Assembly: GCA_046757925.1 (NCBI GenBank)
Contig: JBHHZE010000011.1
Location: 4,145-68,144 of the forward strand
Length of the DNA stretch: 64,000 bases
Source: Gemmatimonadales bacterium
GTDB taxonomy: Bacteria; Gemmatimonadota; Gemmatimonadetes; Gemmatimonadales; GWC2-71-9
Reading direction: 5' to 3'
The notes beneath the pieces were generated by a model. It had not been told where the DNA came from. It did no database searches and was given only the letters and a program-made list of their open reading frames with translations. The position numbers were made by a program, and so were the translations under genes. Shown here one piece after another: positions 25,264 to 29,858 of the stretch; the first letter of the stretch is position 1; each line of letters opens with the position of its first letter.

Positions 25264-25283
25264 TGCAAGGCTATTTGCAAGGC
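25264..25283 (-). promoter_or_regulatory. Tandem direct repeat TGCAAGGC-N4-TGCAAGGC (candidate enhancer/UAS for PilR)
   Basis: Two exact 8-mers with a 12-nt period straddle the stop codon of the TPR glycosyltransferase gene, about 85-105 nt upstream of the -24 element. A third partial TTGC follows. Confidence 0.3.
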
Positions 25284-27139
25284 GACTTGCTGTTCGCGAC
25301 CCTGGCCCTAAGCAATTCAATGGCCCGTCGCTCGGGCTCAGGTGCTAGTGTCAGGGCGGTGTCGGCCTGGGCAATTGCGGTGCGACAGGCTCCCGCACCG
25401 GCTGCCGCCTGAGCCGCCATTTTCCGGACCACCCAAGCTCGTGGCTCCCTGGCTATCAGTTCATCGAGAACCGAGGAGGCGCTGTCGAACTGCTTTGCCG
25501 CAAGCAGGACCTCACCCCTCACCAACGCGATCCCCCTTGTTTCACCGTGCAGTCGGGACATGGCATCCAAGACCCGGCTGGCCTCATCCGTGTGGCCAGA
25601 CCGCTCGAGCGCCAGAGCTAGAGGAAGCGCGGCCGATATGCGACCGGAATCGAGATCCACGGCGCGGGTCAGCAGCGTGATGGCCGGTTCATATAGATCT
25701 GAGGCAGCGTAACGTCGTCCCAGGTCTTCAAGCAATTGAGGATGATCTGGATTCAACCGGATCGCCATACGCATCTCTCGTTCTCCAAGGACCGAATCGC
25801 CACGCTCAAAAGCGTACCATCCGAGCGCCCAATGACTGCGGAACGAATTGGGAGCATCCTCTAGCAGATGGGTGAAAAAACCATCGTTGTCGTGCCAGAC
25901 CGTAGCACGTTGTATGCTTCGAGCCGCAAACAATACGCTGACGACCGCCACCACGACCCCCACCGGCACATGGGCGCGGTCCCTATCCAACGAAACAAGC
26001 CCCGAGTTCACGGCACCGCTCACCGCAAACGCCCAACCCACGGATGGGAGAAACAGCAGCCGTTCGGCAAGCAGTATTTCCAGCGGAACTACCACGTTGG
26101 ACACGACCGACACCGTCACGAAAAACAAGACCACACCGGCAACCAGCGGTGTCTCGTTTCTCTTCAGCCACAAGAGGCCCAGCAGTGCGGACCAAATCAC
26201 CACTGCCAATGCGTGATTCACCCCGAACGCCGGTTCGGGGACCAGCTCGAGTGGTGAGTAATCAGCCGATAGATGAATCGGAAGGAACAACAGCCTCAGC
26301 CATTCTAGGGATACCGGGAGCATCACCATGGCCCGCTGCACGACGGAGCCACGGCTGAGCCCACTGGCAAGCCCGCCCGCCGCAGTCGCGTCGCCTACAA
26401 CTTGATTTCTGAGCAGCAAATACACTGCGACCATCAGGACGAACGGCACTAGCGACAGCCACTCGCGCCGCACGATCGTCGTAAACTCGAGCTGTTTCTT
26501 CCGACCCACCAACATCCAGAGGAGCATCAACACGCCTGGAACGGTCAGCGCGTGCTCCTTCGCACCCAACGCAAAGGCAAACCCTGCGAGCGCCAACCCC
26601 AGCAGGCCGACCCGGGATCGAGCACTCTCCGCGATCCCTCTCTCCCACATCGCAAGCATGGCCGCCAGGTACCCAACCGCTGCCAGCAGCTCCGCCTGTC
26701 CCACCAAGTTCGCTGTTACCTCAACGTGCACTGGATGAACGGCAAACAGGATTCCCGATACCAACCCTACTGCCGGCGAAAACATCCGCGTCCCCAGGAG
26801 TGCCACGAGAAACGCAACGATTCCGTAGAGAACGATATTGACTGCGTGAAAAATCGTGGGACTGCCACCACCCACAGCCCACTCGATCGCAAGACTCACG
26901 AGTGTCCCGGGGCGCCACATCGCTCCTCCTCGATCGGGAGGCCAATAGCTCGATGTCACTAATGCCTTTAAGTCCAGGGTATGAACCACGTCGTTCTGTT
27001 GAATGATCCACACATCGTCGTACACGAATCCATTTACAATGGAAGGGAGAGCCACTACCAAAGCGACCGTCGAAGCGAGGATGCAGATGGAGAGTGTAGA
27101 ACTCGTAAACCGTTCGATCAGCCCGAGTACACCCTTCAT
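25271..27139 (-). CDS. Multi-pass membrane GT-C-like glycosyltransferase with C-terminal TPR repeats (TMTC/DUF1736-like)
   Basis: The first-loop motif NGFVYDDVWIIQQND is followed by about 10 TM segments, then a C-terminal TPR region (ERGDSVLGEREMRMAIRLNPDHPQLLEDLGRRYA...). The start is set at ATG 27139 (ATGA overlap with the upstream stop). The track start at 27235 adds 32 aa. Confidence 0.7.
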   Translation of the reverse strand: MKGVLGLIERFTSSTLSICILASTVALVVALPSIVNGFVYDDVWIIQQNDVVHTLDLKALVTSSYWPPDRGGAMWRPGTLVSLAIEWAVGGGSPTIFHAVNIVLYGIVAFLVALLGTRMFSPAVGLVSGILFAVHPVHVEVTANLVGQAELLAAVGYLAAMLAMWERGIAESARSRVGLLGLALAGFAFALGAKEHALTVPGVLMLLWMLVGRKKQLEFTTIVRREWLSLVPFVLMVAVYLLLRNQVVGDATAAGGLASGLSRGSVVQRAMVMLPVSLEWLRLLFLPIHLSADYSPLELVPEPAFGVNHALAVVIWSALLGLLWLKRNETPLVAGVVLFFVTVSVVSNVVVPLEILLAERLLFLPSVGWAFAVSGAVNSGLVSLDRDRAHVPVGVVVAVVSVLFAARSIQRATVWHDNDGFFTHLLEDAPNSFRSHWALGWYAFERGDSVLGEREMRMAIRLNPDHPQLLEDLGRRYAASDLYEPAITLLTRAVDLDSGRISAALPLALALERSGHTDEASRVLDAMSRLHGETRGIALVRGEVLLAAKQFDSASSVLDELIAREPRAWVVRKMAAQAAAGAGACRTAIAQADTALTLAPEPERRAIELLRARVANSKSPCK

Positions 27140-29130: not shown

Positions 29131-29858
29131 TTGAGAAGACGCTTGCGGTTCAACAGATTGAACCGGAGGATGTGCCAGAATGCGGCAACCCCGTCCTTCC
29201 AATCTATTTTTTTTCCCTCATCGTATGGCCTTCCGCTGTAGCTAATTGGTATTTCCCAGATGCGTGCGCCCGCCTGCGCAAGGCGTGCGGTGAGTTCCAC
29301 CTCTATGCCGAACCGGGTGGACACCAGGGGTAGTTGTTTCAAGAGATCTGCTCTTACCATTTTGTAACACGTTTCCATATCGGTAAGATTGAGATCGGTG
29401 AGCATGTTGGATAGCAGGGTCAGGAATCTGTTACCGATCGAATGCCAGAAGAACAGCACCCGGCGCGGCCCAGCATGGAATCTCGACCCGAAGACGGCAT
29501 CGGCTTTCCCACTCCGGATGGGATCAAGGAGCGTGGGCAGATCGGACGGATCGTACTCGAGGTCGGCGTCTTGGATCACGATCACGTTGCCGGTTGCGAC
29601 CTCGATACCGGCCCGCACGGCCGCTCCCTTGCCTCGATTCATGGGTTGGTGGATGACCTTTTGTATCAGGCCCATCTCGAACATCCGATCCAGAATCTCC
29701 CCTGATCCATCCGTCGAGCCATCGTCGATCGCCAAGACTTCTAGGTGGAGAGGTATTTCCTGGAGTCGTTCAACAGCGGCCTCAAGGGTTGCCGCCTCAT
29801 TGTACACCGGCATGACGATCGAAAGAACTATCTCATTCCAGTCCGACGGAATGCTCAC
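29127..29858 (-). CDS. GT2-family glycosyltransferase, polyprenyl-phosphate sugar synthase type (GtrB/ArnC/Ppm1-like)
   Basis: LSIVMPVYNEAATLE, AIDDGSTDGS, VIQDADLEYDP and METCYK are GT-A fold DxD signatures. At 243 aa it has no TM domain. It lies immediately upstream of two GT-C genes. Confidence 0.85.
   Translation of the reverse strand: MSIPSDWNEIVLSIVMPVYNEAATLEAAVERLQEIPLHLEVLAIDDGSTDGSGEILDRMFEMGLIQKVIHQPMNRGKGAAVRAGIEVATGNVIVIQDADLEYDPSDLPTLLDPIRSGKADAVFGSRFHAGPRRVLFFWHSIGNRFLTLLSNMLTDLNLTDMETCYKMVRADLLKQLPLVSTRFGIEVELTARLAQAGARIWEIPISYSGRPYDEGKKIDWKDGVAAFWHILRFNLLNRKRLLK

Follow-up and report, generated by a model that had tools for sequence, protein, structure and literature searches.

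Background

Systems described for the glycosylation of pilins comprise PglL/TfpO, TfpW and the cytoplasmic GT41 enzyme Ogt of Synechococcus (PMC9306852); the pilins of Thermus are also O-glycosylated, in a paper that names no enzyme for this (PMC7203116). TfpW, found in Pseudomonas aeruginosa strains of group IV, is a protein of 646 amino acids (aa) with 11 predicted transmembrane helices. A DDx motif in its periplasmic loop 1 is essential, and a tetratricopeptide repeat (TPR) domain forms its periplasmic C-terminus; its gene lies next to pilA, and its donor is decaprenyl-phosphate arabinose (10.1101/2020.04.19.049825). The subject of this report is a cassette of three genes, ORF1, ORF2 and ORF3, which lies between pilR and the pilin genes in 64,000 nucleotides (nt) of DNA from an uncultured Gemmatimonadales metagenome-assembled genome (assembly GCA_046757925.1, contig JBHHZE010000011.1, positions 4,145 to 68,144). 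This whole stretch is referred to as the window, and it carries a complete type IVa pilus cluster on its minus strand; proteins with locus tags ACE5HT_05135 and 05140 of that genome match it exactly. The cassette is, on balance and with moderate confidence, best explained as an accessory module of the type IVa pilus whose products O-glycosylate the neighbouring pilins at the periplasmic face of the inner membrane. This explanation is favoured because of the fold and motif assignments of the encoded proteins and the very strong linkage of their genes to those of the pilus. The genes concerned, in the order in which they are read, are:

31259-32902, minus strand: pilS, sensor kinase, context and regulator (orthologs in related loci have 6TM_PilS, PAS, HisKA and HATPase_c domains)
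29883-31262, minus strand: pilR, sigma-54-dependent response regulator, context and regulator (orthologs have Response_reg, Sigma54_activat and HTH_8 domains)
29127-29858, minus strand: ORF1, GT2 glycosyltransferase, 243 aa
27136-29130, minus strand: ORF2, polytopic GT-C enzyme, predicted, 664 aa
25271-27139, minus strand: ORF3, TPR-bearing GT-C enzyme, predicted, 622 aa
24700-25095, minus strand: pilA1, type IV pilin and candidate acceptor, 131 aa (N_methyl 1.3e-09, partial match to typeIV_PilA_Myxo)
24212-24595, minus strand: pilA2, second type IV pilin and candidate acceptor, 127 aa (N_methyl 5.7e-09)

Comparison with described systems

The likeness between ORF3 and TfpW, the pilin D-arabinofuranosyltransferase of strains Pa5196 and PA7, extends to a length of ~620-650 aa, ~11 transmembrane helices, a DD(x) motif in loop 1 and C-terminal TPR repeats, as judged from the published description of TfpW (AAM52060.1) and not from a comparison of sequences. 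Both genes adjoin that of a pilin, ORF3 being 175 nt from pilA1, and both systems would draw on a polyprenyl-phosphate monosaccharide made in the cytoplasm, with no dedicated flippase established. An earlier, sequence-only reading of the window had called such a route undescribed for type IV pili. This overstated its novelty, as TfpW already has the architecture and logic of ORF3: it is a TPR-bearing GT-C enzyme that acts on a pilin with a lipid-phosphate monosaccharide. The two nevertheless differ in several respects. The window cassette includes a GT2 of the DPM1/GtrB type, and no DPPR synthase, DprE1 or DprE2 is present among the 28 genes scanned. ORF3 is encoded upstream of pilA and chained to pilSR, whereas tfpW is downstream of pilA. 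The window adds a GT-C enzyme without TPR repeats (ORF2), its relatives add further GT-C paralogs, and the phylum is a different one. Finally, the YX6PFX7P motif of periplasmic loop 4 of TfpW is only partial in ORF3, as Y294-x6-P301, with the F and the second P out of register.

A further comparison is with TMTC1-4, the O-mannosyltransferases of the animal endoplasmic reticulum (CAZy GT105), whose ligand site in the human proteins is marked by seven motifs, DD, SHKSYRP, RxD, KE(T/Q)xxT, DW, PxxP and ERxxY; full-length bacterial homologs have already been noted (PMC7801869). The likeness lies in an 11-helix, N-in topology with luminal or periplasmic C-terminal TPR repeats, and in a collinear series of motifs: DD (EL1), [Y/W]RP (EL1), an acidic motif in EL2, KExxxT (EL3), D[W/Y] (EL4) and ERxx[Y/F] (EL5). 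In addition, LFAVHPVH in ORF3 resembles LLFAVHPIHT in TMTC3 (PMC7801869). The differences are that ORF3 falls below the threshold of the TMTC_DUF1736 model, that its third motif (M3) is QxE and not RxD, that M6 is absent, and that the acceptor would be a bacterial pilin and not cadherins.

The combination of ORF1 with GT-C enzymes is also reminiscent of GtrA/GtrB/Gtr*, ArnC/ArnE-F/ArnT, CsbB/YfhO and Ppm1/Pmt, in which the polyprenyl-phosphate sugar that a GT2 produces serves a GT-C enzyme as donor outside the cytoplasm (PMC11127046). In contrast to these three-component systems, the window cluster has no gene for a GtrA, SMR or MATE flippase, has two predicted GT-C enzymes, and has a presumed acceptor that is a pilin; ORF1 also has no counterpart to the membrane helices at the C-terminus of GtrB, ArnC and archaeal DPMS. 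PglL/TfpO (PilO) of Neisseria, Acinetobacter and P. aeruginosa group I resemble the cassette in that they O-glycosylate type IV pilins and are often encoded beside pilA, but they are enzymes of the Wzy_C class that take an already assembled glycan from undecaprenyl pyrophosphate and transfer it en bloc, and at E <= 0.01 neither ORF2 nor ORF3 gives a Pfam match to a Wzy_C-type domain. Literature searches found no account of this cassette, or of pilin glycosylation in Gemmatimonadota.

Linkage of the cassette to pilus genes

The distribution of the cassette was surveyed from the side of ORF2 using one genome per species, which gave 80 loci, nearly all from Gemmatimonadota. Sorted by identity to ORF2, the neighbouring genes were as follows:

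ORF2 homologs of at least 44% identity: pilR upstream in 31/32, pilA downstream in 28/28, adjacent GT2 ortholog in 40/40, TPR-bearing GT-C gene in 37/37
ORF2 homologs of 33-43% identity: pilR upstream in 12/14, pilA downstream in 9/13, GT2 ortholog in 1/18, TPR-bearing GT-C gene in 11/15
ORF2 homologs below 33% identity (Gemmatimonadaceae, Bdellovibrionota): pilR in 1/11, pilA in 0/8, GT2 in 1/11, TPR-bearing GT-C gene in 0/8

The sequence-only reading had treated adjacency to pilA in relatives, as opposed to residence in loci for lipopolysaccharide (LPS) or lipid A, as decisive for its proposal, and the counts for pilR and pilA among the closest homologs bear it out. When the survey was made from the side of ORF3, pil genes were seen in 49 of 79 metagenomic ORF3-like loci despite the shortness of the contigs. 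Over both surveys the gene for the TPR-bearing GT-C enzyme lies directly upstream of the first pilin gene in 65 of 71 loci; a larger gap intervenes in three more, and in two it is on the opposite strand.

The composition of the cassette varies considerably. All three genes (GT2, ORF2 and TPR-bearing GT-C) are present in 34 loci, GT2 and the TPR gene in 13, ORF2 and the TPR gene in 12, and the TPR gene alone is in view in 8. As a control, loci were also collected starting from homologs of pilA1. Five of the seven distinct loci obtained in this way have a cassette, consisting of GT2 and TPR genes in one, methyltransferase, GT2 and TPR genes in one, GT2, ORF2 and TPR genes in two, and methyltransferase, GT2, ORF2 and TPR genes in one; the other two have none. 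The recurrent core is the GT2 together with the TPR-bearing GT-C enzyme, to which ORF2 is an optional addition, and the trio is not the conserved unit. The earlier proposal of a three-gene module linked to the pilus therefore stands as regards its linkage and falls as regards its composition, since ORF2 is optional and the whole cassette is missing from some close relatives. This fluctuation in gene content between pilR and pilA implies a variable accessory module, and the pattern (with or without a methyltransferase, ORF2 and extra GT-C paralogs, and sometimes absent altogether) is the same as for pilin accessory genes in P. aeruginosa.

Several additional genes are found within the cassettes of relatives. 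A third family of membrane proteins of ~500-550 aa, with GVFFDDGVY after the first helix and no Pfam match, is encoded between the ORF2-like and TPR-bearing GT-C genes (L009:11968-13494, L050:11725-13380 and 26 others); the window lacks it. This family, too, is probably of the GT-C type; in profile alignment by hhalign it scored E 0.001 with ORF2 and E 0.005 with ORF3, which is too little to call homology. Some cassettes have further PMT_2-like genes. Between pilR and the GT2 gene there may be a fusion of ~1000-1050 aa that joins an MFS-like membrane region to a spermidine-synthase-like domain (L015:6088-9228, and also in L011, L013, L018, L031 and L036), or a gene for an S-adenosylmethionine-dependent methyltransferase (L165:1538-2269, L168:3399-4199), the latter being a hint that the sugar is methylated. 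In many relatives, though not in the window, the pilins are followed by a second pair of HAMP histidine kinase and sigma-54 response regulator (L160:8964-11473, L166:7917-10419).

ORF1, a candidate donor synthase

The assignment of ORF1 to the GT2 family is straightforward. Residues 13-175 match Glycos_transf_2 (PF00535) at 6.6e-36, the DxD motif is DAD at residues 97-99, and the motifs VMPVYNE, AIDDGSTDGS and DADLEYDP reported from the letters of the window are all present. Among the sequences of the PDB, its best matches are archaeal DPMS (5mlz, 5e-15, residues 10-216), GtrB (5ekp, 4e-13) and ArnC (4e-11). The best NCBIfam matches are AglJ (8.8e-34), dolichyl-phosphate hexose transferase, PpgS and ArnC, all of them far below the equivalog cut-offs, so that no specific sugar can be assigned. 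A C-terminal membrane anchor is present in GtrB, ArnC and archaeal DPMS, and is absent from human DPM1 and from the catalytic domain of Ppm1 of Mycobacterium tuberculosis. No hydrophobic or membrane segment was found in the 243 aa of ORF1, which therefore lacks this anchor and fits only the anchor-less subtype of these GT2 enzymes. The prediction of ORF1 as a polyprenyl-phosphate sugar synthase of the DPM1/GtrB/ArnC type is well supported, its closest characterised relatives not being polysaccharide synthases.

ORF3, a predicted TPR-bearing GT-C enzyme

An AlphaFold2 model of ORF3, with a predicted local distance difference test score (pLDDT) of 86.4, has 11 long membrane helices and then, at residues 418-615, a series of TPR hairpins. 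The motif NGFVYDDVWI and the C-terminal TPR repeats described earlier are both there, and the acidic pair D41-D42, in loop 1, is invariant in the family. Searches of Pfam and NCBIfam return TPR families only, including weak matches to PilW and PrsT; the full profile and a Foldseek search with the model likewise return only TPR proteins, which fill the list and leave the search uninformative for the membrane part. The profile of the membrane domain finds no GT-C match among PDB sequences, and plasmids searched by tblastn with ORF3 gave no match. Because structure comparison was uninformative for the membrane part, ORF3 was compared with the ligand-site motifs of TMTC1-4. The motifs DD41, WRP75, QAE148, KEHALT194, DY293 and ERLLF359 each occur once, in the order found in TMTC and with similar spacing, and vary little or not at all within the family. 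They represent six of the seven TMTC motifs, with M2 and M3 partial; M6 (PxxP) is missing from ORF3.

The Pfam model TMTC_DUF1736 (PF08409) does not match ORF3 or any of 22 orthologs. It does score 17-21 bits, below its cut-off of 27, in the equivalent loop in 4 of 10 pilA-adjacent paralogs, and PMT_2 is matched by 3 of 22 ORF3 orthologs. The earlier description of ORF3 as TMTC-like thus agrees with its TPR repeats and, in part, with its motifs, and not with the outcome of the Pfam search. Together these features make it likely that ORF3 is a GT-C enzyme of TMTC/TfpW architecture and the pilin-directed transferase of the cassette; its orientation, with a cytoplasmic N-terminus and periplasmic TPR repeats, is a prediction.

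ORF2, a second predicted GT-C enzyme

For ORF2, an AlphaFold2 model built from an alignment of 22 orthologs (pLDDT 85.8, predicted template modelling score 0.87) was compared with the PDB using Foldseek. The matches ranked 1-29 are all GT-C proteins, of the types STT3/PglB/AglB, ALG9/12, ArnT, AftA, Pmt4, AftD and DPY19, with E values from 2.7e-6 to 4e-3, probabilities of 0.99-1.00 and modest template modelling scores of ~0.3-0.5. The sequence LIDEIAQ, reported earlier, contains the acidic pair D109-E110, which is invariant in 22 sequences of 49-70% identity. The confident model, a top list made up of GT-C structures only and this invariant pair agree with the fold and acidic loop that had been proposed. 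The description of the motif as lying in the first loop requires amendment: in the model, D109-E110 are in a short helix (108-121) that follows three N-terminal membrane helices (2-22, 39-65 and 78-99), and so the motif is in the first large periplasmic loop and not literally in the first. The alignment of homologs with 33-37% identity begins no earlier than residue ~101. On the model, this suggests that ORF2 orthologs have two extra N-terminal helices ahead of the usual first helix of GT-C enzymes. The C-terminal ~190 aa form an alpha/beta domain in the model and contain two invariant cysteines, C525 and C581; the domain is probably periplasmic, which this cysteine pair would fit.

PMT_2 (PF13231) matches 15 of the 22 ORF2 orthologs, with a best E of 4.6e-07, and does not match ORF2 itself, which has no Pfam match; some homologs are named as GT39 family proteins by NCBI and as ArnT-like by JGI. 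The profile of ORF2 finds no GT-C match among PDB sequences. There is a weak NCBIfam match to archaeal STT3 (E 0.0046), and WWDxG, the motif of STT3/PglB/AglB, is absent from all 22 orthologs. Alignment of ORF2 with ORF3 by hhalign gave a weak match of 57 columns (E 0.0055), too little to call homology. ORF2 is described here as a predicted PMT_2/ArnT-like GT-C glycosyltransferase in the neighbourhood of GT39 and GT83.

Pilins as candidate acceptors

Of the two pilins encoded after the cassette, pilA1, with a G+C fraction at third codon positions of 0.74, is the probable major pilin. The pilins of the related loci are small; serine and threonine make up 11-24% of their residues, and each has a single disulfide loop at the C-terminus. 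Stretches rich in proline, serine and threonine in these loops had been put forward as a hint of glycosylation; pilins from loci without a cassette have the same appearance, and the loops are therefore not specific evidence. For 72 pilins linked to a cassette (loci L001-L159), the N-x-S/T sequons of the globular parts were also counted. There are 98, against 63.8 +/- 6.9 in shuffled sequences (maximum 87) and 38 for the reversed pattern, and they are concentrated in three columns of the alignment. Fifteen of the 72 pilins have no sequon, and, as the pilins are related, the enrichment is inflated by their shared ancestry.

Proposed pathway and alternative explanations

The scheme favoured here, in which donor, acceptor, type of linkage, order of action and co-transcription are inferred from the observed gene order, folds, motifs and gene linkage, would begin at the cytoplasmic face, where ORF1, as a peripheral GT2, would transfer one hexose or N-acetylhexosamine from a nucleotide sugar to polyprenyl phosphate. 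The lipid-linked sugar would then be flipped, either by a flippase encoded elsewhere or by the GT-C enzymes themselves. On the periplasmic side, the TPR domain of ORF3 would bind the membrane-anchored pilin before pilus assembly, and the site formed by D41-D42, K194-E195 and E359-R360 would move the sugar to a serine or threonine. ORF2, a predicted GT-C enzyme with a periplasmic domain of its own, may extend the glycan, or may serve other sites or the second pilin. The sequence-only reading had proposed pilin-directed periplasmic glycosylation fed by a polyprenyl-phosphate sugar. The gene linkage, the GT-C fold of the ORF2 model, the motifs and the affinities of ORF1 agree with that proposal, apart from its claim to be a route without precedent among type IV pili.

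A number of observations weigh against this scheme. No acceptor signature was found, as the pilins of cassette-free and cassette-bearing loci are not visibly different, and no Pfam GT-C model is matched by ORF2 or ORF3 themselves. ORF2-like proteins of less than 33% identity are effectively unlinked to pil genes. A separate clade of ORF3-like proteins (~38-41% identity, mostly ~500-600 aa; loci L087, L088, L089, L091, L095, L096, L098, L105 and L108) has no pil gene within its flanks, which extend up to 7 kb. In L160/L161 (8001-8396 and neighbours) and L162 (CP070792.1), pilR is followed directly by pilA without a cassette, and the pilins are 72% and 65% identical to pilA1; the cassette must be dispensable there, or else located elsewhere in those genomes, and these loci, with pilins that look the same as the rest, imply that glycosylation is not obligatory. 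No flippase gene is present among the 20 flanking genes scanned, just as had been remarked earlier for a GtrA-like protein; the same genes include none for nucleotide sugars, polysaccharide or lipid A. Lastly, ORF1, ORF2 and ORF3 are probably co-transcribed with pilSR, the whole basis for which is their spacing and the lack of terminators at their junctions.

Some of these points would be accommodated if the cassette O-glycosylated other proteins of the envelope, such as minor pilins, PilQ and other parts of the pilus or, as with actinobacterial Ppm1/Pmt, a general periplasmic set, and owed its position to shared regulation by PilSR. PMT/TMTC enzymes have many protein targets (PMC7801869), paralogs exist outside pil loci, the pilins of cassette-free loci are indistinguishable from the rest, and the cassette is chained to pilSR and not to the pilA promoter. 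This is considered unlikely nonetheless, given that the TPR-bearing GT-C gene is directly upstream of pilA in 65/71 loci whatever the remaining content of the cassette, that variation in presence and copy number is typical of pilin-specific accessory genes, and that TfpW, with the same architecture, is pilin-specific. An acceptor that is not a protein at all, for example lipid A or LPS (following the logic of ArnC/ArnT), an exopolysaccharide or another glycolipid whose expression is tied to that of the pilus, appears quite unlikely. It would be in keeping with the matches of ORF1 to ArnC and GtrB, with those of the ORF2 model to ArnT and AftA, with the ArnT-like names that JGI gives to some ORF2 homologs and with the distant ORF2-like genes (<33% identity) outside pil loci. 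The orthologs, however, are tied to pilR and pilA in practically every locus that is informative, TPR domains go with protein acceptors in the characterised TMTC and TfpW enzymes, and the neighbouring genes scanned include none for polysaccharide or lipid A. By Pfam, the sole LPS genes among 28 genes of the pil cluster and its flanks encode LptF/LptG, on the opposite strand beyond pilB.

The remaining alternatives concern the roles of ORF2 and ORF3. Archaeal pilins are N-glycosylated by AglB, and ORF2 might be a relative of STT3/PglB/AglB that N-glycosylates pilins at N-x-S/T with a polyprenyl-phosphate sugar, while ORF3 adds or extends an O-linked one. STT3, PglB and AglB make up the top 14 PDB matches to the ORF2 model, the weak NCBIfam match is to archaeal STT3 (E 0.0046), and the sequons of the 72 pilins are enriched and clustered in three columns. 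Against this, STT3 structures are over-represented in the PDB, WWDxG is found in 0/22 orthologs, the Pfam matches of the family are to PMT_2 and not to STT3, the partner is a polyprenyl-phosphate monosaccharide synthase in 40/40 loci, and the cluster has no phosphoglycosyltransferase or genes for the assembly of a lipid-pyrophosphate oligosaccharide; 15/72 pilins are free of sequons, and the sequon count is inflated by their kinship. Such a role for ORF2 seems very improbable. If true, the pili of Gemmatimonadota would carry N- and O-linked sugars from two GT-C enzymes encoded at the pilin locus, a bacterial counterpart to archaeal pilin N-glycosylation. It is hardly credible that ORF3 is instead a TPR assembly factor without catalytic activity, like PilF, PilW or TadD, with the GT2 and ORF2 as unrelated passengers. 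The restriction of its database matches to TPR families (including the weak ones to PilW and PrsT) and the label "Flp pilus assembly protein TadD" that JGI gives to several homologs speak for such a factor. It is difficult to reconcile with the 11 membrane helices made by ~420 residues of ORF3, with invariant DD, KE, DY and ER motifs that fit the donor and metal site of TMTC, and with the GT2 ortholog that accompanies the TPR gene in most loci. A scaffold like PilF or TadD was rejected on the strength of the invariant catalytic-type motifs.

Gene order, promoter and intergenic elements

On the minus strand, the chain pilS-pilR-ORF1-ORF2-ORF3 is followed by a sigma-54 promoter and then by pilA1-pilA2. 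The junctions described in the sequence-only reading were all recovered: pilS and pilR overlap at GTGA 31259-31262, the pilR stop (TGA, 29883-29885) is followed after 24 nt by the GTG of ORF1, and the three cassette genes are joined by the 4-nt stop/start overlaps GTGA 29127-29130 and ATGA 27136-27139. The GTG start of ORF1 is supported by the conservation of its N-terminus, (M/V)S(I/V)PxDWN, in ~40 orthologs. No terminator-like site was found at any junction; the seven sites detected, against a chance expectation of 7.2, are all inside open reading frames or after pilA2. The intergenic elements are:

25205-25225, no strand assigned: AT-rich inverted repeat TTATAACA-tcttg-TGTTATA, ~25 nt upstream of the -24 element, read directly from the sequence
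25165-25180, minus strand: sigma-54 -24/-12 element TGGCATgcgggTTGCA for the pilin genes, sole exact match in the window
24618-24657, minus strand: 12-bp stem-loop CTGCGCCGGATG...CATCCGGCGCAG, without a T-run, between pilA1 and pilA2, read from the sequence

The promoter proposed ahead of the pilin pair was found as an exact TGGCAT-N5-TTGCA, ~70 nt upstream of the pilA1 ATG and inside the 175-nt gap between ORF3 and pilA1, and it is the sole exact TGGCAY-N5-TTGCW in the 64 kb window. A looser GG-N10-GC precedes the first pilin gene in 44/78 related loci, compared with 10/78 shuffled controls. The pilins probably have a PilR/sigma-54 promoter of their own. The AT-rich palindrome may be a site for integration host factor or for an activator. 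The stem-loop is a putative attenuator or mRNA stabiliser, which could set the ratio of pilA1 to pilA2 transcripts.

The rest of the pilus cluster comprises:

35418-37124, minus strand: pilB
34274-35413, minus strand: pilT
33067-34257, minus strand: pilC
after pilA2, minus strand: three minor-pilin-like genes, pilM, pilN and two open reading frames at the position of PilO/PilP
16887-18701, minus strand: pilQ, secretin

Just upstream of pilB, at 37206-37823 (minus strand), is a gene for a ComEA-like helix-hairpin-helix protein, with which a role of this pilus in DNA uptake would fit. The secretin gene is directly followed by an open reading frame of 818 aa without a Pfam match (14405-16861, minus strand), and open reading frames of similar size, 819 and 833 aa, follow the secretin genes of L163 and L164.

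Implications

The cassette is present, absent or recomposed among loci whose pilins are 65-75% identical, as would be expected of a trait that diversifies the cell surface, for instance under pressure from phage or predators. If pilin glycosylation is confirmed, the principle known from TfpW would not be confined to a few Proteobacteria but extend to an entire phylum of soils and sediments, most of it uncultured, with a different donor pathway (a GT2 as opposed to the D-arabinose route) and with modular extras in the form of a second GT-C enzyme, GT-C paralogs and a methyltransferase. As the recognition of substrates by the TPR domains of the animal enzymes is poorly understood, the locus could also offer a bacterial enzyme and its substrate, as a small and defined pair, in which to study TMTC-type O-glycosyltransferases.

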